From: Yuukianura sp. NJ FZ-2021
Taxonomy: Eukaryota
Assembly (NCBI GenBank): GCA_046563655.1
Contig: CM102286.1
Coordinates: forward strand, 2,790,001-2,854,000
Direction: 5' to 3'
DNA length: 64,000 bases
The notes under the pieces are model-generated. The model was not told the DNA's origin, did no database searches, and worked only from the letters and a program-made list of their open reading frames with translations. The position numbers and the translations under genes were made by a program. Below, piece by piece: positions 2,714 to 18,466 of this stretch (within the stretch, counting starts at the first letter, position 1; every line of letters starts with the position of its first letter).

Positions 2714-5053
2714 TTAGATTCCGTCTTTTTGGTTTTTGTGCTCATTCACTATGTCTTCAGCGGCTTTTTCTGCGATGACAATAACAGCCGTGTTTGTATT
2801 TGCATTAGTAACTTTCGGCATAATTGAAGCGTCCACAACTCGAAGTCCTTTAAAACCATGGACACTAACAGAAAACAAAAAGTTTGACCTTTGACCTATC
2901 AATTAAGCTTGAAAAGTTTACAAAACAGGGAAAACATACCGTAGTTTTGAGTCAACAACAGAATTTGAATCTTCCGCTCCAAAACCCATTCTGCAAGTTC
3001 CCGATGCGTGGTACCACAAGATCCCTTTCTTTTTAATGTAACATTTCAAGTACCCATCACTTGGAAATTTGTTGGCTTTGGCACATTCTGGATCCTTTAC
3101 ATGTTCTGTGTCGAGCTCCCTGAACGCCTTGGTTTTAAAAAATTTCAGTGCCGTTTTCATTCCTGTCAAAATTTGAGTCAAAAAAAATTGTTTACGTTTT
3201 GTTTAAATTTTGCGTAACTACTTCGTGTATTGTCATATTTTAATTTCACCATATTTCAGCACGCCATAATCCTCTTTGTTTTCTAAAAACTTGTAGTCAA
3301 TTACAGCCAATTCAGCATTATCAATTGAGTGTTGATTGAGAGCTGTAGTGTTCAGCGTTACGGTACCAAGCGAAACATTGCTGTTAGTACGACCGACCAG
3401 CACTGCTATTATGAACTGGTCTGGCGGTAACTCGTAGATACCTTTTGTATCAAAAGTTGTACCAATAAAGAAATATTGTACATCAGGCCAATCCGATTCT
3501 CCGCGACTTTTGGCTTGCGGTGAAACAAGAAAACCTTGCGTTCCTACCCCATTTTCAGAAAGAACAATTTCAGGTCTGTGATTCAGGTAGTCTTCGAAGA
3601 TTTCTTCTGTCAAGTTATTATTTACACTTGAAATCTTGCTTGGATCGTTGATTTTGAACGGACCAAATGAAATTCCTTGATGATTTTGTAAATTTTTCCC
3701 AACGGGAAGCTCTTTGCGCAGTTCAATTTTGGCTTTGTCCAGAACATCTTTTGGTCCAATACCGGATTTTTGGAGCACAAGAGGCGAAGAGTAAGTACCA
3801 GCAGAAATTATGACTTCTTTTTTGGCGTAAGCTTGGAGTTTGACGCCGTGCCGGACGTACTCTACGCCAATGGCTTGGTTTCCGTCGAACAAAATCTTAT
3901 GTACAAAAGCGTACCGGACAACAGTCAATTTTTTTCTTTTAAGGTGAGGTTGAACGTATGCGGTGTAAGTAGATACACGCCGACCACATTCGTGCATTAT
4001 ATCTGATGGAGTGAATCCTGAAAAAGTTTTGAATTAAAACGATTTCTAAAAAAGCTCGAGTACCGCGGTACTACGGTACCGCAGGATACCTTCACGTTGT
4101 GGTCCATTTGGATCGAACACGTCGTAACCAAGTTCAGCAGCAGCTTTCTCCCAAACTGGATACATTGGTCGAGAAGATGTGACTATTGTCATTGGTCCAT
4201 CCGTTCCATGTTGATCTTTTAAAAAAAGATTACTTTTGATATTCTTAAAGTTTGAAAAATGTGGTAAAAAAAAGTTTGAAAGTTCATGTTTAAAACAAGC
4301 TGCAAGACCTGATTTTGGCCACATCCCATGGTATGACTCTGCTTTTCGAAAATATTTCAGCAAAGATGCATACGTCCAACTGCTGTCCTTTGAAACTTCT
4401 GCCCATAGGTCATAATCTTTTCTAAAAATTTAAAGAACGCATTTCAAAATTTGATATTTTTAAGAATTTGCTAAGCGTTGCTTACGGATGTCCCCTGTTG
4501 TAAATGATTGCATTGTGGGATCCACTCCCACCGAGCATTTTACCCATAACATCATCCAGTTTCTGTAATATTATTGAATATCATGGCAAAATATGCTTCA
4601 ACATTAAAATTAAATGCTCAATTTACGCGATTGTTGACATTCTTCTGTGGTACGGTAGTGTAGAAGTAGTTGATGTCTGGTGAACTTCCGATGTATTCGT
4701 AAAAGGCGGGTACTTGACCTAAAAGCGGTGGTTCACCACCAGCTTCCAGAAGAAGCACTTTGAAATGCTCCGATAAACGTCCAGCCATGACACATCCTCC
4801 CGTGCCACCCCCAACTAAAACACAAGTCAAAATTTTTATTAGTATTTTAGGAGAATTTCTAAAATTTGAAAAAATTTAAACAGCAAAAATATATCAAATA
4901 CTTACCAATTATAAAATCATACGTAGGCTTCGACGGGTGTTTTCCTTCGGCATGAAACTGTTTTTCGTCAATTCGTCGCAGCTCATCAGTTGCCTGACGT
5001 ATAACATACGGGAGTGCCGTAAGAATTATTGCAGCAAATGAAGCAACTCCCAT
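2714..5053 (-). CDS. GMC oxidoreductase copy 1 (glucose/choline dehydrogenase-like flavoprotein), 8 exons, 597 aa
   Basis: Exons 5053-4906, 4814-4627, 4562-4486, 4421-4309, 4215-4090, 4017-3250, 3162-2940, 2864-2714, all GT-AG, sum 1794 nt in frame. Motifs: [53 protein letters not shown]...[49 protein letters not shown]...NTNTA (His/Asn catalytic pair). Confidence 0.95.
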
Positions 5054-5900: not shown

Positions 5901-8247
5901 TTAAATTTGATACTCGTGCAATATATCTGCTGCTGCTTTCTCTGCGATGCCAATTACTGGCGCATTTGTATTTGCGTTTGTTACGCGCGGCATAATCGAA
6001 GCATCCACAACACGAAGTCCCGTAAATCCATGAACCCTAAATTCAATCCAAAAAATTGAACTTTGACCTCTACTGAAAAAGTTGGCAAATTTTAAATAAT
6101 GAAGACTACCGTAGTTTAGAGTCAACAACAGAATTTGAATCTTGCGGTCCATAACTCATTCTGCAAGTTCCCGCTGCGTGAAACCAAACACTTGCTTTCT
6201 TCTGAATATAACAGCGCCAGTAGTCATCGCTCGGGAATTTGTGGCTGTTGGCACATTCTGTATCCTTCACAAATCTTGTTCCAATAGCTTTGAATGCATC
6301 ACTTTTGAAAATTTTTAACGCCGATTTTATGCCTAAAACCAAAAATAGAATCATTTCGTTTGAGTTTTGTGTAAAAAACAAAGAATTTCATTCGAGTAAT
6401 ATTTTTTACGAATTCCAAGTCTTACCAAATCTGAGCACTTCGTAATCTTCTGGGCTTTCTAGGAACTTATAGTCAATTGTAGCCAATTCCGCGTTGTCAA
6501 TAGATTGTTGAAGGAAAGCGGAAGTATTCAGCGATACTGTACCAAGCGACTCTGCATTAAATTCTGGACGACCAATGAGAACTGCCGAATAAAGGTAATT
6601 TGGTGGTGTAGCTGCGATTCCGCCACTACCAAAATTTGTGCCTATAATAAAAAATTGTACGTCGGGCCAACTTGATTCTCCACGACTTTTAGCTTGCGGT
6701 GAGACAAGGAACGCTTGTGTTCCTAAACCAGTTTCAGATAGAACCATTTCATGTTGCAGGTTTAAGTAGGCTTCAAAGTTGGCCTCGGTTAAGTTATTGA
6801 AAACATTGGATAGTTTGCTTCTGTCGTTGACTTTGAACGGACCAAGTGAAAGTCCTTGGTGATTTTGTAAATTTTTTCCAACGGGAAGCTCTTTGCGCAG
6901 TTCAATTTTGGCTTCTTCCAGAACATCTTTAGGTCCAATACCAGATTTTTGGAGGATCAAAGGAGATGCGTACGTTCCAGCAGAAATTATGACTTCCTTT
7001 TTAGCGTAAGCTTGCAGTTTGACACCATGTCGGACGTATTCTACACCAATGGCTTGAGTTCCGTTGAATAAAATTTTGTGTACAAAGGCGTATCGCACAA
7101 CGGTCAATTTTTTTCTATTAAGGTACGGTTGAATGTAACTGTTGTAAGTGGTCAAGCGTCGACCGTCTTGCCGCATGAAGTCTGATGGAGTGAATCCTGA
7201 AATAAAAATTTTGAATAGAAATACCTATATTTTTTCGACACAACATGGTACCTTCACTTTGTGGTCCGTTTGGATCGGAAGTTTCGTAACCCAGTTCTGA
7301 CGCGGCTTTTTTCCAAGTCGGATAAATTGGGCGCGAAGATGTGACAAGTACCATTGGTCCATGTGCTCCGTGTTGATCTTTTCACAAGTCATATTTTTTT
7401 GGTTAGATTTTTTTTTTAAATTAACTAAAAAGAAAACGAGTTTTTGTTAAAACTGAATTAAAAAAAATACCCGATTTAGGCCAAATCCCTTGGTATGATT
7501 CCGCTTTTCGAAAATATTTCAGTAAAGACTCATATGTCCAACTTGGATCTTTTGAAATTTCTGCCCAACTATCATAGTCTTTTCTAAAAAAAAATTCAAA
7601 AATTTAACTCAGAAGGTTATTTTGAAATTTAGAAATGTTGCAAACGTACGGATGACCTCTGTTATAAACCAGAGCATTGTGAGACCCGCTTCCTCCAAGC
7701 ATTTTGCCCATGGTATCTTCAAGTTTCTACAACAGTATCACAATAATGTGTCAGCTAACGCATTCACATGAACGTCGTAATACTAAAGCTAGAAGTAGGG
7801 TTATGAATTTTCAATTTTACACGGTTGTTGGCGTTTTTTTGCGGAGTAGACGTGTAAAAGTAGTTGATGTCTGGTGAGCTACCGACATATTCGTAGAAGG
7901 CTGGTACAGACGTCAAAGGTGGTGGTTCACCACCAGCTTCGAGAAGAAGTACACTGAAATGTTCTGACAGTCGCCCGGCAACTACGCATCCAGCCGTTCC
8001 AGCGCCAACTAAAATCATTTCGAAATTACACAGAATGTAATTTAGAAAAACGTTAAAAACATATGTTAACAATATACACAAAATGTTTTAGTTACACACC
8101 GACTATGAAGTCATAGGAATTTTTGGAACTGTGCTTCCTTCCGGCAAGAAATTGTTTTTCGTCAATTCTTCTTAGCTCATCTGTTTCTAGGCGTAGAAAG
8201 TAGGGAAGAGCTGTAAGAATCGCATTAGCAAAAAATGCGACACCCAT
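5901..8247 (-). CDS. GMC oxidoreductase copy 2, 8 exons, 593 aa
   Basis: Exons 8247-8100, 8008-7821, 7726-7650, 7583-7471, 7377-7252, 7196-6426, 6332-6110, 6036-5901 (1782 nt). Intron positions match copy 1. Motifs [64 protein letters not shown]. Confidence 0.95.
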
Positions 8248-8672: not shown

Positions 8673-10989
8673 TTAATTTTGATGTTCGCGTAGAATGTCG
8701 TTTGCCGCCTTCTCGGCGATGACCACCACTGCTGCATTTATATTTACATTTGCAATTCTCGGCATGATTGAAGCATCTATAACTCGAAGTCCACTAAATC
8801 CGTGCACACTAAAGACAAGACAAGAACTTTTAGTTTGACCTTAAGTAACAAAGGTTTACAAAATTTTGAGTAAAGATTGTGTTTATACCGAAGTTTTGAG
8901 TCAACAACAGAATTTGAATCTTGAGGTCCGTAGCTCATTCGGCAAGTTCCGGCTGGGTGAAACCACACAGTCGCTTGGTTCTGTATGTAGCAGCGCCAGT
9001 AATCATCGCTTGGAAATTTGTACTTTTTGGCACATTCTTTGTCTTTTACATATTTTGTTCCAATAGCTTTGAATGCCTCTGTTTTCAAAATTTTTCTCGC
9101 CGCTTTTATTCCTAATAAATTAAAAGGTACTGAGCAAAGTTTTTCCTTTGACAATTCCAAAATTTTACCAAATTTTAGCACTGAGTAGTCTTCTCGGCTT
9201 TCTAAAAACTTGTAGTCAATTAGAGCTAATTCTGCATTATCAATGGACTGTTGCTGAAAAGCAGAAATGTTTAGCGATACTGTACCAAGCGATACTTCGT
9301 TGAATTCTGGACGACCAACGCGTACTGCTGCATAGAGGTAATTCGATGGTGTAGCTGAGTTAACCTCAGCGCCAATATCTGTTCCGACTACTGGAAAAAT
9401 AAGTACGTCAGGCCAACTCGATTCTCCACGACTTTTGGCTTGCGGTGAAACAAGAAATGATTGTAGTCCTGAGGTAGCTTCAGAAAGAACGGCTTCATGT
9501 TGTAGGTTTAAGTACGCTTCGAAGTTAGCTTCCGTTAAATTATTGTTAACAGTAGATAATACGCTAGGGTCCTTGACCTTGAACGGACCAAGTAAAACTC
9601 CTTGGTGATTTTGTAAATTCTTGCCAACCGGAAGTTCTTTGCGCAGTTTAATTTTGGCTTTGTCCAGAACATCTTTTGGTCCAATACCAGATTTTTGGAG
9701 GATCAAAGGAGATGCATAAGTACCGGCAGAAATTATGACTTCTTTTTTTGCGTAAGCTTGAAGTTTGACCCCATGTCGGACGTATTTTACTCCAACGGCA
9801 TGATTTCCATTGAACAAAATCTTATGAACGAAAGCGTATCGGATAACTGTTAATTTTTTTCTGTTATTGTGGGGTTGAACGTATGCGGTGTAAGTGGATA
9901 CACGCCGTCCATCCTGGCGCATGACATCTGACGGAGCGAATCCTAAAATTATAATTATGAAATTCAAATAATTTCTATCAGGTTTGTGGTTCGCGGTACC
10001 TTCGGTTTGTGGTCCATTTGGATCAGAGAGTTCGTAACCGAGCTCGTATGCAGCTTTCTTCCAAATGGGATACGCAGTTCCTGAAGACGTAACCAATGTG
10101 ATTGGCCCATTTGTTCCATGTTGGTCTTAAAAAAAAATTACTATTTTATTTTAAAAACAAAAAACTAAAGTGCTAAAACTAAGAATTTCCCGTCCGTCAA
10201 ACGAAGTAAAATCACAAACTTACTTGACTTCGGCCAAATTCCTTGGTAAGATTCAGCCTTTCGAAAATATTTCAGTAAAGAGTCATATCTCCAACTTGGA
10301 TCTTTTGAAATTTTAGCCCAGTTATCAAAACCTTTTCTAAAAAAAATTGGAAACTTATGCGATGCCTTATTTCAAAATTACAAACATAACAACAGAAATG
10401 CCTTACGGATGACCCCTGTTATATTCAATTGCATTGTGCGACCCACTTCCTCCTAGCATTTTACCCATAGTATCCGTAAGTCTCTGCAAGAAGTGACAAA
10501 ATTTGAATAACTGTCAACTGTGTTATTTGAAGTAAATAATTTGAAGCTATTACACTTACACGATTGTTGATGTTTTTTTGCGGAATAGACGTGTAGAAGT
10601 AGTTGATGTCTGGTGAGTTTCCGACGTATTCGTAGAAGGCTGGGACAGAAGCTGTAGGCGGTGGTTCGCCACCCGCCTCAAGAAGAAGCACATTGAAATG
10701 TTCCGACAAACGTCCAGCCACGATACATCCAGCAGTGCCGGCACCAACTAAGAATTATTTCGAAACTGCTCCAAGTGTGTAACTCAAAAACGTTAAAAAC
10801 TTTTTTTTTGACAAAATATGAAAATTGTTGGTAAAACGTACCGACTATAAAATCATACGTATTTTTAGAGTTGTGTCTTCTCTCGTTAACAAATTGTTGT
10901 TCGTCGATTCGTCGTAGCTCGTCTGTTTCCAGACGCAGAATATATGGAAGGGCTGTAAGAATAACTGTAGCAAATGAAGTGACTGCCAT
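8673..10989 (-). CDS. GMC oxidoreductase copy 3, 8 exons, 594 aa
   Basis: Exons 10989-10842, 10747-10560, 10483-10407, 10336-10224, 10125-10000, 9942-9169, 9111-8889, 8808-8673 (1785 nt). Exon lengths 148/188/77/113/126/774/223/136 match the paralogs. Motifs [18 protein letters not shown] and [10 protein letters not shown]. Confidence 0.95.
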
Positions 10990-11250: not shown

Positions 11251-11831
11251 TTAAAATTGATACTCGTGAAGTATTTCTGCTGCTGCTTTTTCTGCGATGG
11301 CCACAACGGCTGTATTTGTATTTGTGTTTACAATTTGCGGCATGATTGAAGCATCTACAACTCGAAGCCCCGTAAATCCATGGACACTAAACAGAAAGCC
11401 AGCAAGTTGACATTTTACATCTACTGAAAAAGTTTGGACATTTTTAAGAATGAAGGCTACCGAAGTTTTGGGTCAACAACTGAATTTGGATCTAGCGGTC
11501 CGAAGCTCATTCTACAGGTTCCCGCTGGATGATACCATAGACCTGCATTCTTCTTAATGTAACAGCGCCAGTATTCATCGCTTGGGAATGTGTGTGTTTT
11601 AGCACATTCTGGATCCTTTACATATTCTGTGCCAATCCTCTTGAATGCATCAGTTTCAACAATTTTTAGCACCGTCCTCATGCCTACCCAAACCAATGTA
11701 AAGAAAATTATTCGCTTAGAGTAATATTTTTTTTTATGAATTCCAAGTTTTACCAAATTTTAACACTTCGTAGTCTTTCCGGTTTTCTAGGAATTTGTAG
11801 TCAATTCTCGCCAATTCCGCGTTGTCAATAG
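11251..11831 (-). CDS. GMC oxidoreductase copy 4, 3' part only (5' part lost in the assembly gap)
   Basis: Partial exon 6 (11831-11754, [25 protein letters not shown]), exon 7 11683-11461 (223 nt, [11 protein letters not shown]), exon 8 11386-11251 (136 nt). Exon sizes equal those of the paralogs. Confidence 0.9.
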
Positions 11832-11931
11832 NNNNNNNNNNNNNNNNNNNNNNNNNNNNNNNNNNNNNNNNNNNNNNNNNNNNNNNNNNNNNNNNNNNNN
11901 NNNNNNNNNNNNNNNNNNNNNNNNNNNNNNN
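11832..11931. other. Assembly gap (100 N, placeholder length)
   Basis: Exactly 100 N; truncates a gene on each side. Confidence 1.
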
Positions 11932-11979
11932 TGGATTCCAATGCATTTTTTCGTCTAAACAAGATCATTTGTGTTGCAG

Positions 11980-13747
11980 GCGATTCTGGTTCTGAACATG
12001 ATTCTGAAGTCGTTTTTGGAGCTGACTTCCGGAAATTCTTCCGAACATATCTGAAAAGAAACAAATCGATCATTTGCTCTCCAAGATTTGGCGAAATCCA
12101 ATGCACTTCGGAACCAGAGTGGAAGTTTGATTTAGGTACTAATCTCAATTTTCAAAATTTTGAAGTTTGCGCCTGCGGAATTTTGAAATTCTGTTTTCTT
12201 TGGGTAGACGAAAGGGTGATCTTATTGGTTGATATGGACTGCTTTGCTGTTCAAGTGTACGGTGACCGCGATGATGTTGGACAACCAAGAGCTGTTTTCA
12301 ACGGCCCAGTGTAAGTGCTTTCAAAGGTTAAACCATTTCGAATTCAAATGGGCATTTTTTAATATTTTGTTTTGCTTTTTCACTCCAAAAGTTTTAGTTT
12401 TATGTTTTTTGTTTTTGTCAATTTTTTTTAGAATTGAGTCTGTCAGTTACGAAGCCAAGCAAGTCGGGGTCAAACGGCGCATGACACGAGAACTGGCACG
12501 GCGGACTTGTCCCAATCTAATTGAAATTGAAAATCCAAAGAGAAGAAATGGCCGTCCAGACAAAATCCCTGGAATGACTGCGACAGCAAACATCAAAAAG
12601 TCCATTTTGAAAATTCTGAATCAATATGGAGACTTGTCCACTTTTGAATTTGCCTCAAAAGACGAATTCTACATCGACTTGACTGAAGTCATCAACAAGC
12701 AGGAATACCGTGGAAGTAGAAGCAACCTTCGCGGTATGATTCCAGCCGGGAATGACTTTTGGTCATCCGTGTACATATACGGAAGTCGCACGGTTGGACA
12801 CTCCAGGAGACCGACATACTTGTTTCATCGACTTCCCTGTCTTCGTAGAAAGTCCGGAGCATATACGGAATTTGAACGTCAAGAGATTCGACTTCTTTAT
12901 GGAACTTGGATTGGCAGTCAAATTGTGAACAGCATTCTACAGGATACTGGCTATCAAGCGTCAATTGGAGTCGGGTCAAACAAGGTCACGGCCAAAATTG
13001 CCTCTGATACACACAAGCCTGGATCAATAACGGTTTTCCCGCCAGCAAGTTACGATTCAGTTGCGGAATTCATTGACTTTCAAAAAGTACCAGGATTTTC
13101 AGCTAACTTGGGTGACACTGTTCGAAATGAATTTGGAACCGAAACGATTCAAGATCTTCAGCACATAAAAGTCCATCGACTGGTGAATTTGAATTTGCGC
13201 GGGAATAATGGCAATAGAGAATATCTAGAAGACGTACTCCAAGGAGCTCATTTCATATGTGACGAAGATGTCGAGCCAATTGATGGATTCAAAACGGCAT
13301 CTTGCAACAGAAATTTCAAATACGGTCAGCAGTATATCAATATTTTAAAAATTCAAGTTTTGTCTTAAATCGAATTCGCATTTTTAAAATGTTTTTTTTT
13401 CATTTTCAGGTGAAGTATCTGAGCAGTATGTTTTTGAAGAAATGCTGCGGGAACAGTACGAGGAAATGCTGGAACGCCTTCGGTTTGAACACAGAGTTAA
13501 TGGACGTCTTCCATACTCAATCAAGTTGGCGGTAAAACTGAATCGACACAATGGTGGAACTTCAACAAAATCGTTCAGAATTTCGGGATCTCCGATATCC
13601 GCCAGACTCTTGACAATGAGATTTTTGAAAAATGCTTTCACAAGCGAGAACAATCGGGCAAAATATCGCGATTCAATTCTTCCTTGGGATGAAAACATAT
13701 TCTCAGGAGTGAGCAATATCGGCCTAGTTGCAAATTTTGGACAATAG
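11980..13747 (+). CDS. Divergent Y-family (Pol eta-like) polymerase, copy A; 5' end lost in gap
   Basis: Exons 11980-12135 (frame also open back to the gap), 12208-12310, 12432-13324, 13410-13747, phases consistent. Motifs: VILLVDMDCFAVQV (I), IESVSYEAKQVGVKRRM (II), EFASKDEFYIDLT (III), GYQASIGVGSNKVTAKIASDTHKP (IV), QKVPGFSANLG (HhH/thumb), little finger KTASCNRNF ... EEMLERL. Confidence 0.88.
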
Positions 13748-14634
13748 GAAATTCCTATTAGGAATCAAGACTGATTTAAACAAAGTAGCATAACTAATCG
13801 GCAGCTTAGGTTAGTTAATATAGAATATATAAAATTCGAATTATATAAAATTAGCTTTTTGTTGTTTACTAATGTTAAACAGTGGTTAACCCTTCAGTAG
13901 TGAAATTATTTATGACCAATGTTAAGTAGAAATTAGTTTAACTTATCATATTAATATATTACGATCGTATTAATTTAATACACAAAATATACAACTTATT
14001 TTGGTACGTTGATGTAAAAGAAACTTTTACATATTAAAGTTCAACAATAGACTTATGCAGATCTTCTGGGAAAAAATTCCATAAAACTTTAATTTTTAGT
14101 TGAATTAAAACAGTTCCAAAAATTCGGAAATCCTATAAGTAATGTTGCTTTCTGAATTCAGTGAACCCAAATCTAATTTTTTGAAAGTGTATTAAGCTTT
14201 TTATGCATTCAAGGCTTCAGTTCGTTTATAATTTTTTCTTTCATTTGATTCTTTACCAGAAACATTTCTGGACTAGCACTGGAGAAGTAACGAAAGATTT
14301 GAAGATCTTATCATTCAAACGTGTTTTGTGTTTTGTAAGAAAAAATGTATAATTCTTCAACAAGTTTTACAACTACAACGCTACTTTATGAAGGAATGGG
14401 CAAAAAGCCATAAAATTTGCTACGCCTCTGCCTTATGACCTCGATTAACAAGATTATTCCCCCCTCAAAAGCTTATGTTTAGTATGTTACGCATGTTATG
14501 CTGCATATATTGTAGCTAAGAAACTAAAAACACAGATTGTGGTTCCTCAAGGTTAGTCAAAAAACGTTTTTGGTTGATACACATCATACACGTCAGAGCT
14601 TTTGAACTAATAGTAAACCGCACCACAAAATCTC

Positions 14635-14640
14635 TATAAA
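14635..14640 (+). promoter_or_regulatory. Possible TATA box of Y-family copy B
   Basis: ctATAAA ~130 nt upstream of the ATG at 14769. Weak evidence in AT-rich DNA. Confidence 0.3.
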
Positions 14641-14768
14641 CGTCAAAGTGGTTCTGGATTTTAGCATGAGACTTTCACACAACAAGCTGCAGTCTTTAGT
14701 TTGACTACAGTCTTGGTAGTGTCTGCAGATTAACAAGTTAAAATCGCTGATTTTTAGAAAGTTGTAAT

Positions 14769-16989
14769 ATGGCTACTGAAGATTTGTTCGGAGAAGTAAT
14801 AGTGAACGGATTTCGTGGAAGTGCGAAATTTCAAATGTTTCAACGATTTTCTACTATTACTCCACGTTTAGCTCAAGGATTGGAGACTTTCATGGTTTCT
14901 ATTGCAAATGGAAGAAGTATGGGCCCTGCTGTTAGAGTCCCCTTGATTTTAGGTTCCAATTTATCCAAAATCAATTGGACGCTATACCTCTGCAATGATT
15001 GCGGTAAGTTTTCATTTATGTTTTGTAAGACTTAGGGTGAAATTCTATTCTCATTTTTACCGTAAAACTTCTAATAGACGCCTTAACGCCCAAGCATTTA
15101 TTCAACATCTCATCTTCTACCCCTGACATGTACGAGTCCAGCGTTTATTTTTAGATTCATGGTTCAACCCCTGGAGCTTTTTACCGACTAGAGTTTGTTA
15201 GAAGTTTTACGGTAAATACAATTAACTAAAATTTAACAATTTTGTTTTTGTTACAGACACTTCTGAAGTTGTTTTTGGAAACGACTTCCGGAGATATTTT
15301 CAGACAAACTTTGCAGAGCCGATTCCAACCATTGTGTCTCCAATATTTGGTGAAATTCGGTGCACTTATGCACCAATATTGAAATTCGCATTAGGTATTT
15401 AGTAATTAATACAAGCTACTATAACAGTAATTAAATTAAGGCTTAACAATTTGAGTTTTACACATGCGTCTAAACGTTGAAATTTTGAACAGATGACAGT
15501 GTAATTTTACTAGTGGATATGGACTGCTTTGCTGTGCAAGTTTACGGGAGTCCAAATGATGCTGGAAAGCCAAGGGTGGTATTCAGTGGACCAGTGTAAG
15601 TGCTACATAGCAATTTTTTCTAAACTTCAATTTTCTTGCTTTCGTTATTTTAAAACTTGTGGGATTTCCCGCCTTTTGTAGAATTGAATCGCTCAGTTAC
15701 GAAGCGAAGGAGAGAAACGTCAAGCGATGTATGACAGAGGAGCAAGCGTTAAAGGAATGTCCTGAACTTGTTATAATTGAAAATCCTGAGAGAAAAAACG
15801 GCTGTCCAGATAGGATTCCTGGGATGAAGGCGACCGCGAAAATCAAAAAAGCCATTTTGGAAGTTTCGAATCAATACCGTTCGGCAATTTTCGAATTTTC
15901 GTCGAAAGACGAATTTTACATTGACGTTACGCAAGCTGCTGACGACCAGGAAAATAGTACAAGAAATAACCTTCATCTCATGATTCCAGACGGGACCCAT
16001 TTTTGGCCATCGGTCTACTTGTACGGAAGTGGCACCACGGGCAAATCTATGCAACCGACATATTTGTTACGACGGCTACAGTTTCTTAACAGGAAACGTT
16101 CTTCGTACTATTCCGACTTTGAAAGACAAGAAATTCGATTGCTGTTTGGAACTTGGATTGCGAGTCGAATTGTGGAAAATATTTTAAACAAAACTGGATA
16201 CCAAGCTTCGATTGGAGTGGGGTCCAATAAGGTCGCCGCCAAAATTGCTACCGGGGTACACAAGCCGGGATCCATCACTGTTTTCCCGCCTTCCAGTTAC
16301 GATCAAGTTTCAAAATTTATTGAGTTTGAAGACGTGCCTGGATTTGCATCCAATTTGGGTGACAGCGTTCGCGAAAACTTTGGAATCACGACGATTGACG
16401 ATCTTCAGCGCATTACAGTTGGAAGAATCTTGAACACGAGCTGGAACAACTGGACTGAAAAAGATTTAAACAAAAGACTCAGAGGATGCCACTTCATTTG
16501 TGATGAAGTGGTAAAACCAATTAGCTGTGCAAAAAGTACAACCTGTACAAGAAGATTTTGGAATGGTAAGTGTCAATTCAGTAATTGAATTTTCGTATTC
16601 ATAGTTAGAATGACTTCTTTTATTAAGAAAAATTTTTTGCTTCAGTTGACGTGTCTCAGCATTACCAACTTGAGAAAATGCTGGACGAGCAGTACGAGGA
16701 AATGCTGGAACGACTCTGGTTTGAACTGCGACATAATAAACGTCGTCCTGTTTCAATCAAACTTGAAGTAAACTTTTACAACCAAAATGGCGGAAGTTCA
16801 AACAAGTCACTCAAAATCAGTGGATCTCCACTACCTCGTCAAATGCTAAACGTTGTTGCTTTAAGAAATGCTTTCATAACAGAAAACAACAAACTAACGA
16901 ACAGCCGCAACGATTCAGTTCTTCGCTGGAATCAGCGTACATACGGAGGTGTCAACAGTATCACCATAACTTCAAATTTCGAAAAATAA
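14769..16989 (+). CDS. Divergent Y-family (Pol eta-like) polymerase, copy B, 5 exons, 567 aa, with ~125-aa N-terminal extension
   Basis: Exons 14769-15003, 15257-15394, 15493-15595, 15682-16565, 16646-16989, sum 1704 nt, all GT-AG, no stops. Motifs: VILLVDMDCFAVQV, IESLSYEAKERNVKRCM, EFSSKDEFYIDVT, GYQASIGVGSNKVAAKIATGVHKP, EDVPGFASNLG, KSTTCTRRF ... EEMLERL. The last three intron positions are shared with copy A. Confidence 0.9.
15056..15216. repeat. Inverted repeat (24-bp arms) in intron 1 of Y-family copy B; MITE-like or RNA hairpin
   Basis: Left arm tttaccgtaaaacttctaatagac (15056-15079) vs reverse complement of 15193-15216, tttaccgtaaaacttctaacaaac: 22/24 identical. Confidence 0.75.
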
Positions 16990-17293: not shown

Positions 17294-18466
17294 TTAAACA
17301 TTTCTTTCTTCATGTCCATCAGTATGGTCAGTTCCAGCGCAGGTTCCACAGTAAATGACATTGCATCCGTCACAACCATCTCCACTGCCACCGCCACCTT
17401 CACAACTCCCTCCACCAATTATCATCAGTATGAACAGCACAATCATAAACACTACTGTCACGATCAAGAAGATAGACAGAGCAGCAGCAACATAATTTTC
17501 TGGACGAAATTGACAGCATTCTCCGGACATAATCGCTTGCGTGTAAATGGCAAGGCAGGTCGATAGTCCTAAACTTGCTAAACCACAAACGACGATCATT
17601 CCGGGTTCCTCCGGTGGAAATGCATAGAGCAGCAGAAGCGATATCAGCGCCACTGTGGTCAGCACTATCAGCAAGTGGCCGTACCATTTGAGATCAAATT
17701 TGGACTGGACGCTTGAGTACAGGAGCACCACGGCGCATGGGCAGAGTAGAATTCCAAAAGCGTAGACGACATGGTTCTGTCTATTGATAAACAAAACAAG
17801 TTTTAAGAAATGAATTTTGTGTAAAGGTCAAAGGTCATTGAACTTACTCTGACAAAGTAGCCAGAACTGCCACGCCAAATCCAAATGTTAGAGTGAACAA
17901 TCCCAGAAGGATTAAATTGGCAGGAAATATTTTCATAAGTGGTTTGTTGCAGAACAGGATGAGAAAAATTACAAACGAAAATACAAAAGCAACCGCCGAA
18001 AATACAGACCAGCCTTCTTGAATAACGCATCTTATCGAAGTGATGAAATTTGTTAGCACGATGAGAATTAGAGTTGTGAGTACTTGAGCCGTAAATATTC
18101 CGTAAATTTTTCTGCAACAAAACAATTTACCAAATTAATTTCTAGTATTTAAAATTATTCAAAAATTTTTGATTCCTCAAAAATGTAGAAACCCGAAAAA
18201 GTTAAAAGAGAAATTTCAAAATTTTGTCAACTCAATCTCTTCTTAACGCGTTAAATTTTTGCAAAATTTGTAAAACACGCTTACCTAAGGAATCCAAGGC
18301 GAATTGAGGCGTCACTAAAATTTGGTTGTGCAGGTAGTGATAAATGTGCTTGGACACTTGTTGCACTTTGACCTCTGTTGTAGATTGCACTAAAATCGTC
18401 ATTTTCATCTGGCAGGATTGAAGTTTTAAAAGTGCTGTTTGTATTGCCGTTCATTTTGGAGCTCAT
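17294..18466 (-). CDS. TMBIM/Lifeguard (Bax inhibitor-1 family) membrane protein, 3 exons, 310 aa
   Basis: Exons 18466-18285, 18111-17848, 17780-17294 (933 nt). Family motifs FSDASIRLGFLRKIYGIFTAQV, FPANLILLGLFTL, QSKFDL, TQAIM...PENYVAAAL; multiple hydrophobic helices. Confidence 0.88.

Follow-up and report, generated by a model that had tools for sequence, protein, structure and literature searches.

Tandem Pol-eta-like genes with alanine and glycine at the sugar-gate positions: candidate natural counterparts of gate-less Pol eta mutants

The window analysed here, a 64,000-nucleotide stretch of DNA from Yuukianura sp. NJ FZ-2021, contains two tandem, intron-bearing, Pol-eta-like paralogues on the same (+) strand, copy A and copy B, in which Ala stands at the position of the steric-gate residue F18 of human Pol eta and Gly at that of its partner Y92. 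Judged from the sequences and by analogy with engineered mutants, their products may be template-directed polymerases with little steric exclusion of ribonucleotides, that is, natural F18A/Y92-loss enzymes, a reading to which we give an even chance.

Results

All exons described below lie on the + strand. For copy A, 495 amino acids are visible in the gene model predicted from the sequence (exons 2-5); its first, ATG-bearing exon is probably hidden in an assembly gap of 100 N (11832..11931) upstream of exon 2, because exons 2 and 3 are without a usable start codon. Exon 2 (11980..12135), which has an AG acceptor and a GT donor and aligns with exon 2 of copy B, encodes an N-terminal extension of no known family. 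Exon 3 (12208..12310) encodes the first beta strand and motif I, with D13 at 12231-12233, D15 at 12237-12239, Ala18 at 12246-12248 and Tyr22 at 12258-12260. Exon 4 (12432..13324), whose 297-residue product is referred to as P0001, encodes the fingers, palm and thumb and includes the equivalents of Y52 (12448-12450) and R61 (12475-12477), Lys for R55 (12457-12459), Gly for Y92 (12571-12573), Met for R93 (12574-12576) and the motif III tetrapeptide S-K-D-E (12655-12666, with its Lys at 12658-12660). Exon 5 (13410..13747) encodes a probable little finger and ends in a stop codon, no C-terminal tail being predicted.

Copy B is predicted from the sequence to comprise five exons and 567 amino acids. 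Its putative exon 1 (14769..15003), likewise a sequence prediction, begins with ATG and consists of 78 codons plus one base, with a GT donor whose phase fits exon 2 (15257..15394), which encodes the N-terminal extension. Exon 3 (15493..15595) carries motif I, with Ala18 at 15531-15533 and Tyr22 at 15543-15545, and exon 4 (15682..16565; P0002, 294 amino acids) carries Gly for Y92 (15821-15823), Met for R93 (15824-15826) and S-K-D-E (15902-15913, with its Lys at 15905-15907), followed by exon 5 (16646..16989), again a probable little finger and a stop codon. Between the two copies, identity is 64-74% for corresponding exons (0-15 gap columns per exon) and 56-65% for introns (5-44 gap columns per intron). 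Within the window, tblastn matched only copies A and B, with no third Pol-eta-like copy. A Pfam scan of the N-terminal exons found no family and an Atlas search with exon 1 of copy B gave no usable match; the Atlas search with P0002 returned generic Y-family clusters only, one word-index protein search found no match and a second gave two weak ones, covering 27-28% of the query at 33% identity, and a metagenome locus search with a six-row alignment gave two loci.

The Pfam IMS profile (PF00817) matched the two copies with 71.3 and 72.5 bits (cut-off 23.2), and the best match in a PDB sequence search was human Pol eta (E 2.9e-14), Pol IV and Dpo4 matching query residues 158-248 only, at E ~1e-8 to 1e-5. 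An AlphaFold model of P0001, which is without the 35-residue motif I exon, reached a pLDDT of 89.9 and a pTM of 0.88, and the best 50 Foldseek matches to it, with TM up to 0.75 and a probability of 1.00, were without exception human Pol eta. By their IMS profile, modelled fold and catalytic carboxylates, the window proteins are members of the Y-family DNA polymerases. The best matches being Pol eta, descent from the DinB/Pol IV branch was not borne out. At the C terminus, IMS_C scored below its cut-off on copy A (E 0.12) and did not match copy B, although a single-sequence hhalign of copy A exon 5 gave a weak, co-linear alignment with canonical residues 339-374 (E 0.025) and the clade profile alignment runs through canonical column 369. 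The frames end 111-113 residues past the thumb in both copies, and the Pfam scan of exon 5 found no UBZ family, whereas canonical matches carry PF18439. The predicted proteins thus appear to end with the little finger, without a ubiquitin- or PCNA-binding tail, though the coding sequence might continue in an additional downstream exon that escaped recognition.

The assignment of residues at the gate depends on the alignment register, for which human Pol eta numbering (G85...Y92 R93...S113 I114 D115 E116) was taken from the PDB alignment. An earlier note on this DNA had aligned GRPDKIPGMTAT of copy A (coded by 12550-12585) and GCPDRIPGMKAT of copy B (coded by 15800-15835) with human Pol eta without gaps, reading Y92 as Gly and R93 as Met; translation confirmed the Gly codons that it had named, and three further comparisons upheld its register. 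A MAFFT L-INS-i alignment of 53 rows was ungapped here, with the same two substitutions. An hhalign comparison of the divergent clade described below (23 rows) with canonical Pol eta (26 rows; probability 100%, E 2e-66) paired K44 with L89, G47 with Y92, M48 with R93 and A50 with A95, the 7-residue length difference falling after the helix. In the AlphaFold models, DSSP has the helix begin with residue 45 of P0001 and residue 90 of the human-numbered canonical control, an offset of 45 that equals those of D43/D88 and G47/Y92. The two copies share 9 of the 12 residues of this 12-mer, a likeness that is not due to chance, because the copies are only 58% identical overall and their dS is 1.2 (synonymous sites saturated).

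Both copies retain the metal-binding carboxylates D13, D15, D115 and E116 together with S113, Y52, R61, K224 and K231, all in common with canonical Pol eta (POLH/RAD30; human core PDB 3MR2 etc.), which is their best match in sequence and fold and has the same domain order; D115, E116, K224 and K231 are present in all 53 alignment rows. The window proteins differ from canonical Pol eta at F18 (Ala), E22 (Tyr), Q38 (Asn or Ser), R55 (Lys), Y92 (Gly), R93 (Met) and I114 (Lys). The loss of both aromatics that the earlier note had pointed out was evident on inspection of motif I, which reads DMDCFAVQVY with Ala18 in both copies, and motif III is SKDE in both, as it had also stated, with Lys for I114 beside the catalytic Asp. 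Column 18 is Tyr or Phe in all 28 canonical rows having a residue there. Column 92 is Tyr or Phe in 29/29 canonical rows and in none of the 23 divergent rows, a single one of which has His, and Ile or Val at column 114 is likewise found in 29/29 canonical rows and in 0/24 divergent rows; at column 93, Arg is present in 29/29 canonical rows and Arg or Lys in 17 of 23 divergent rows, Met being confined to the window pair. In canonical Pol eta, the residues at positions 18, 22, 92, 93 and 114 flank the incoming nucleotide on its sugar side.

The window copies also lack the UBZ/PIP tail of canonical Pol eta and possess an N-terminal extension, and the helix that follows residue 90 is 14 residues long in canonical Pol eta and 24 in the window protein, according to the AlphaFold models. 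Given the gate, Tyr/Phe92 and Arg93, the core residues, the tail and the grouping in the tree, the window proteins are, as far as their sequences are concerned, not canonical Pol eta. A quick IQ-TREE analysis (midpoint root) split 24 divergent rows from 29 canonical rows with an SH-aLRT of 99, and FastTree with DinB-type outgroups gave the same split; the basal position of the divergent clade may be a long-branch artefact. The named members of this clade are all springtails (Folsomia and Orchesella): OXA37822.1, XP_035715905.1 and OXA41349.1 of Folsomia candida and ODM91094.1 and ODM87662.1 of Orchesella cincta, all annotated as 'DNA polymerase eta', and an unnamed product of Orchesella dallaii. 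The named relatives are 23-38% identical to the window exon-4 protein.

Across the whole clade, positions 18 and 92 are non-aromatic and Ile or Val is missing from 114. Among its 11 sequences with a real motif I, position 18 is Ala in two (the window pair), Gln in one (L001) and Glu in eight; P0007, P0050 and P0161, whose N-termini are without Asp-x-Asp, were left out of this count. The N-termini of these three look like mis-called starts or intron read-through. The named springtail proteins resemble the window pair in that positions 18 and 92 are non-aromatic, position 22 is aromatic or His and position 114 is neither Ile nor Val, but differ from it in having Glu18 where motif I is visible, Leu, Ala or Val at 92 and mostly Arg or Lys at 93. 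Ala18 together with Gly92 (and Met93) is confined to the window pair among the clade sequences compared. In terms of sequence, the window pair is no private oddity but lies at the far end of a clade that is remodelled as a whole at 18, 22, 92 and 114.

Discussion

The substitutions in the window pair include two positions, 18 and 92, that have been altered by mutagenesis. In human Pol eta, F18A is described as raising the relative efficiency of rNTP over dNTP use from ~0.0004-0.003 to 0.3-0.7 while CPD bypass is kept (excerpt of PMC13716900), and Y92 is described as stacking on F18, with Y92A relaxing ribonucleotide discrimination (excerpt of PMC10639073), in agreement with the packing of Y92 under F18 as a second rNTP barrier that the earlier note had stated. 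Because F18A and Y92A both loosen discrimination, template-directed polymerisation by the window enzymes would most likely proceed with poor or no exclusion of the 2'-OH. In the engineered mutants, F18A and Y92A of human Pol eta and F35A of the yeast enzyme, the same positions have been made small by single changes, whereas the window genes are natural and combine both changes with those at 22, 93 and 114.

A natural precedent is DinB2 (MsDpo4) of Mycobacterium smegmatis, in which Leu replaces the aromatic gate and which is portrayed as adept at ribonucleotide incorporation (excerpts of PMC4176160 and PMC6846668). The DinB2 clade shares a naturally non-aromatic steric-gate residue with the window pair, but belongs to the bacterial DinB/Pol IV branch and has a Leu gate, whereas the window enzymes belong to an animal Pol-eta branch and combine an Ala gate with a Gly backing; the likeness is one of functional analogy only, not of membership. 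We propose that the window enzymes would act in sugar-promiscuous (rNTP-capable) bypass or gap-filling, in functional terms as a eukaryotic counterpart of mycobacterial DinB2. Judged from the absence of the tail, they may be recruited by something other than ubiquitin-PCNA, perhaps via the N-terminal extension.

The alternative that survives best, although we consider it rather unlikely, is that the gate has been rebuilt and that the enzymes are still dNTP-selective bypass polymerases in which the hydrophobic F18/Y92/I114 stack has been swapped for Tyr22, Lys114 and Met93, possibly with a polar filter, a packing with which a 2'-OH would still clash. The earlier note overlooked that position 22, a helical turn further along than position 18, has changed from Glu to the aromatic Tyr, a gain that speaks for this alternative: Tyr, His or Trp occupies position 22 in 11/11 clade sequences with a real motif I, the 26 canonical rows of alignment A3 without exception have Glu there, and positions 18 and 22 share one helix (H17-25) in the control model. 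Among the best 150 library matches, 93 have a motif-I match, a spurious regex match in P0093 being disregarded, and 83 of these 93 combine Tyr/Phe18 with Glu22. Between them, Tyr22, Lys114 and Met93 could occupy some of the F18/Y92 space and may rebuild a barrier, and sugar selection in the Y family is said to depend also on a polar filter, which can carry part of the selectivity (excerpt of PMC6846668). That the relatives carry Glu or Gln, both with a long side chain, at position 18 points in the same direction; this residue might itself gate, and the clade ancestor may therefore still be sugar-selective. Against a rebuilt gate, the window pair has the smallest residues of the whole clade at both 18 and 92, and F18A alone is described as abolishing most discrimination in human Pol eta (PMC13716900, in the same excerpt).

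It is improbable that the two copies are decaying or non-catalytic duplicates, whether under relaxed constraint or converted into a DNA-binding protein that has stopped polymerising. The branches of the clade are long, and some relatives have lost catalytic residues, P0010 having Asn for the first Asp and the mite sequence P0013 having SSDG and SVDD at motif III; against decay, however, the window copies have kept all catalytic residues, give a confident AlphaFold model and maintain open frames over 4-5 exons, with intact GT-AG splice sites and a dN/dS of 0.26 despite saturated synonymous sites. On this sequence evidence both copies are intact and under purifying selection, and a pseudogene reading was rejected on the open frames, the splice sites and the dN/dS.

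A register error, with Thr51 of P0001 as the true equivalent of Y92 and Ala52 as that of R93, is likewise quite improbable. Pairwise phmmer did produce this pairing by placing a 4-residue gap just after GRPD, and such a helix shift keeps the hydrophobic pattern, but this register was dropped because the 53-row alignment, the profile-profile comparison and the helix starts in the models all agree on the ungapped one; the Lys/Arg-Pro/Ala-Asp ... Ala-Ser/Thr motif is also gapless across the clade. Read from the sequence, either register puts a small non-aromatic residue at the Y92 site. The earlier note's own reading, a pocket enlarged to take 2'-modified, NAD-like or other substrates of more bulk than an rNTP, is very improbable: only the shrinkage of the two side chains (from Phe to Ala and from Tyr to Gly) and the Lys gained beside the catalytic Asp favour it, nothing points to such a substrate, and the residues for triphosphate binding and template handling match an ordinary templated polymerase.

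To our knowledge, the aromatic steric gate is treated as near-universal among Y-family polymerases, and F18A Pol eta serves as an engineered tool to map where polymerases are used. An Ala gate with a Gly backing, present in two copies under purifying selection within a clade of multiple sub-families, would constitute a natural experiment on sugar selection. If the window enzymes are sugar-promiscuous, they would represent deliberate ribonucleotide use in animal DNA repair and could serve as scaffolds for the enzymatic synthesis of RNA or modified nucleic acids; if they are still selective, they would represent a second, non-aromatic way of building the gate. More tentatively, and with somewhat less than even confidence, we suggest from the sequences that springtails, and perhaps other soil micro-arthropods, possess a multi-gene, tail-less, Pol-eta-derived family in which the gate has been abandoned, with the window pair as its most open members, dedicated to ribonucleotide-inserting or RNA-synthesising repair, which would be the first natural gate-less Y-family polymerases of eukaryotes. 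If this is true, such a family might be of use under a shortage of dNTPs, for instance in tissue that is non-dividing, desiccated or UV-exposed.

Results

Two tandem copies of a Pol eta-like gene

The window has the features of eukaryotic DNA: its G+C content is 31-40%, and its introns are short and of the GT-AG type. Positions 11980-16989 contain one gene twice, on the same strand (copy A and copy B). Copy B is predicted to consist of five exons (14769-15003, 15257-15394, 15493-15595, 15682-16565 and 16646-16989) with an open frame of 567 aa. In copy A, four exons are visible (11980-12135, 12208-12310, 12432-13324 and 13410-13747; predicted, 495 aa); because its exons 2 and 3 offer no usable start codon, the first exon is probably hidden by an assembly gap at 11832-11931 (a scaffold gap with a nominal length of 100 N), which lies between an oxidoreductase-like array and copy A. 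Every exon junction in both copies is GT-AG, and a tblastn search revealed no third copy in the window.

The two copies share 64-74% nucleotide identity in their exons (0-15 gap columns each) and 56-65% in their introns (5-44 gap columns each), and their proteins are 58% identical (285/491 aligned residues). The value of dS is about 1.2, which is saturated, with a dN of 0.32 and a dN/dS of 0.26. The duplication is old, and purifying selection acts on both copies.

Two neighboring features were observed. On the minus strand, there is a tandem array of four or more long ORFs or gene fragments that resemble each other (3233-4033, 6406-7224, 8777-10126 and 11457-11964), the last of which is interrupted by the assembly gap; their motifs make them candidate GMC-type oxidoreductases (glucose-dehydrogenase-like). 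Directly downstream of copy B, also on the minus strand, an ORF (17294-18125) would encode a hydrophobic, multi-pass protein, one end of which is rich in Cys and Gly.

Fold and domain ends

The large exon-4 proteins of copy A (P0001, 297 aa) and copy B (P0002, 294 aa) match the Pfam IMS family with 71.3 and 72.5 bits, respectively (cut-off 23.2), and the closest solved structure by sequence is human Pol eta (E 2.9e-14). An AlphaFold model of P0001, based on a 53-row alignment, had a mean pLDDT of 89.9 and a pTM of 0.88, and the best 50 PDB matches that Foldseek returned for it were all human Pol eta, with TM scores of at most 0.75. This model covers exon 4 only, position 18 being encoded by the separate motif I exon.

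In both copies, the last exon has approximately the length of the little finger. Its match to IMS_C is weak in copy A (E 0.12) and absent in copy B, and its hhalign match to canonical residues 339-374 is co-linear but weak. Both reading frames end with this little-finger-length exon, and the predicted proteins are too short to include a ubiquitin-binding zinc finger and a PCNA-binding tail such as canonical Pol eta matches carry (PF18439). At the other end, approximately 125 residues precede the polymerase core in copy B (exons 1-2, 14769-15003 and 15257-15394); the corresponding segment of Folsomia relatives, for example P0048, is only approximately 13 residues long. No Pfam or Atlas match was found for this extension, the exon 2 part of which is common to both copies (copy A counterpart, 11980-12135).

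Replacement of the sugar-side residues

Motif I is encoded by exon 3, a short one, and its sequence is DMDCFAVQVY in copy A as well as in copy B. In human Pol eta numbering, position 18, the steric gate, is therein Ala (12246-12248 in copy A; 15531-15533 in copy B), and position 92, which backs the gate, is Gly; the loss of both aromatics claimed in the earlier note was thus confirmed. In place of E22, an invariant residue of canonical Pol eta, both copies have Tyr (12258-12260; 15543-15545).

The assignment of position 92 depends on the alignment register. The earlier note had aligned this region to human Pol eta without gaps, yielding Gly for Y92 (12571-12573; 15821-15823), Met for R93 (12574-12576; 15824-15826) and S-K-D-E as motif III (12655-12666; 15902-15913), and we found these residues in both copies; the human numbering was checked in the PDB sequence alignment (Y52, R55, R61, G85, Y92, R93, S113, I114, D115 and E116). 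From the conserved Gly to the catalytic Asp, the window stretch is 7 residues longer than the human one. Three family-level tests agreed with the ungapped register. First, MAFFT L-INS-i, applied to 24 divergent Pol eta-like rows (including the window pair) and 29 canonical Pol eta rows, aligned R-P-D-K-I-P-G-M-T-A-T with K-A-D-L-T-R/K-Y-R-E-A-S/G, ungapped. Second, a profile-profile comparison by hhalign, with 23 rows of the divergent clade and 26 of canonical Pol eta (probability 100%, E 2e-66), paired K44-L89, I45-T90, P46-K91, G47-Y92, M48-R93 and A50-A95 and located the 7 additional residues entirely behind the helix. Third, DSSP placed this helix at residues 45-68 in the P0001 model and at 90-103 in that of the canonical control P0148, whose core numbering equals the human numbering; the helix starts are offset by 45, as the ungapped register requires, whereas a pairwise phmmer register would need 41. 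In the phmmer alignment, GRPD is followed by a gap of 4 residues, so that Thr falls opposite Y92 and Ala opposite R93; this register was set aside on the strength of the three tests, and the residue that it gives at position 92 is likewise small and non-aromatic. Given the agreement, we are highly confident that Y92 is replaced by Gly and R93 by Met.

Elsewhere in the active site, D115, E116, K224 and K231 are present in 53/53 rows of the family alignment, and D13, D15, S113, Y52 and R61 are kept in both window copies, in which R55 is replaced by Lys and Q38 by Asn or Ser. Thus, the machinery for nucleotidyl transfer and triphosphate binding is conserved, and it is the sugar-side residues that are replaced.

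A divergent clade whose named members are from springtails

HMMER, run exhaustively against 1.84 billion representatives, gave 1121 matches at E ≤0.001, only four of which reached E ≤1e-30 (34-41% identity); the window's own proteins were not found in the protein collections searched. The named divergent members are all from springtails (Folsomia candida, Orchesella cincta and O. dallaii) and are annotated 'DNA polymerase eta' or unnamed. Judged by these relatives, the DNA of the window probably stems from a springtail or a near relative of springtails. In a quick IQ-TREE analysis, a branch with an SH-aLRT of 99 split the 24 divergent from the 29 canonical rows, and the window pair (98) fell within a six-row sub-family (99) that includes a Folsomia protein. 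The family diversified early, since Folsomia and O. cincta each occur in two sub-families. With DinB-type outgroups, the divergent clade was placed outside all canonical Pol eta, which is likely a long-branch effect and not a sign of great age.

The remodelling extends across this clade. Column 92 holds Gly, Leu, Ala, Val, Pro, Gln, Ile or His, with Tyr, Phe or Trp in 0/23 divergent rows as against Tyr or Phe in 29/29 canonical rows. Column 114 is Ile or Val in 0/24 divergent versus 29/29 canonical rows, Lys occupying it in nine divergent rows. Column 93 retains Arg or Lys in 17/23 divergent rows, and Met occurs only in the window pair. Motif I could be recognized as genuine in 11 members of the clade, namely both window copies, seven proteins and two metagenome loci; P0007, P0050 and P0161 were left out for their mis-called N-termini. 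Position 18 is Glu in eight of these, Gln in one (L001) and Ala in the window copies only, and all 11 carry Tyr, His or Trp at position 22. Among the best 150 library matches, motif I was matched in 93: 83 had Tyr/Phe18 with Glu22, two Tyr18 with Ala22 and six Glu18 with an aromatic or His22; of the remaining two, one is from a mite and combines Ala18 with Phe22, and the other is a spurious match. The change of Glu22 to an aromatic or His seems to define the clade, as though the aromatic side chain had been shifted by one turn of the helix, from 18 to 22. Within the sampled sequences, Ala18, Gly92 and Met93 of the window are the smallest-residue extreme of this clade-wide remodelling, and this state must predate the A/B duplication.

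Separately, motif I of the clade member P0010 reads NADSFEVQVY, with Asn instead of the first of the catalytic Asp residues, and some clade members may be catalytically dead.

Outside the springtails, a protein of the oribatid mite Oppia nitens (P0013, XP_054159717.1, 919 aa) contains two fused Pol eta-like modules whose gate positions hold Ala and Ser and whose motif III is degenerate (SSDG, SVDD). FastTree placed it as sister to the springtail clade; there is therefore a second soil micro-arthropod lineage with gate-less Pol eta relatives. The very long predicted protein P0058 (4385 aa) matches the query in 17 separate stretches; it is possibly a tandem run of Y-family modules that were joined in error.

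Discussion

In human Pol eta, Y92 stacks on F18, in line with the earlier note, and Y92A relaxes ribonucleotide discrimination (PMC10639073). Human F18A is reported to retain polymerase activity and CPD bypass, and to use rNTPs, relative to dNTPs, with an efficiency of 0.32-0.74, up from 0.00036-0.0031 (PMC13716900). DinB2 of M. smegmatis, with Leu for the aromatic gate, is described as naturally adept at ribonucleotide incorporation (PMC4176160). From these precedents, we infer with about an even chance that the window enzymes would be active template-directed polymerases that hardly exclude the 2'-OH sterically.

A possible, though less probable, alternative is that the gate has been rebuilt and another barrier restores sugar selection. 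The aromatic gained at position 22 would sit one helical turn past residue 18 (helix 17-25 in the P0148 control model), Lys114 and Met93 may fill space, and a separate polar filter is reported to contribute to sugar selection in the Y family (PMC6846668). That the pocket is enlarged for a substrate bulkier than an rNTP, as the earlier note proposed, is very improbable, with nothing in its support beyond residue sizes.

The loss of the regulatory tail and the gain of an N-terminal extension suggest that the enzymes may be recruited in some way that does not involve ubiquitinated PCNA.

A full-text literature search, with subscription journals largely outside its scope, returned nothing relevant on Pol eta of Folsomia candida or on Collembola Y-family polymerases, and in databases the divergent-clade proteins carry no annotation beyond DNA polymerase eta. 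In bacteria, Y-family enzymes without the gate are already known (DinB2); to our knowledge, there is no natural gate-less example from the eukaryotic Pol eta branch. The facts read from the sequence are solid, the function is what we infer from them, and the predicted change in sugar selection would be directly testable.
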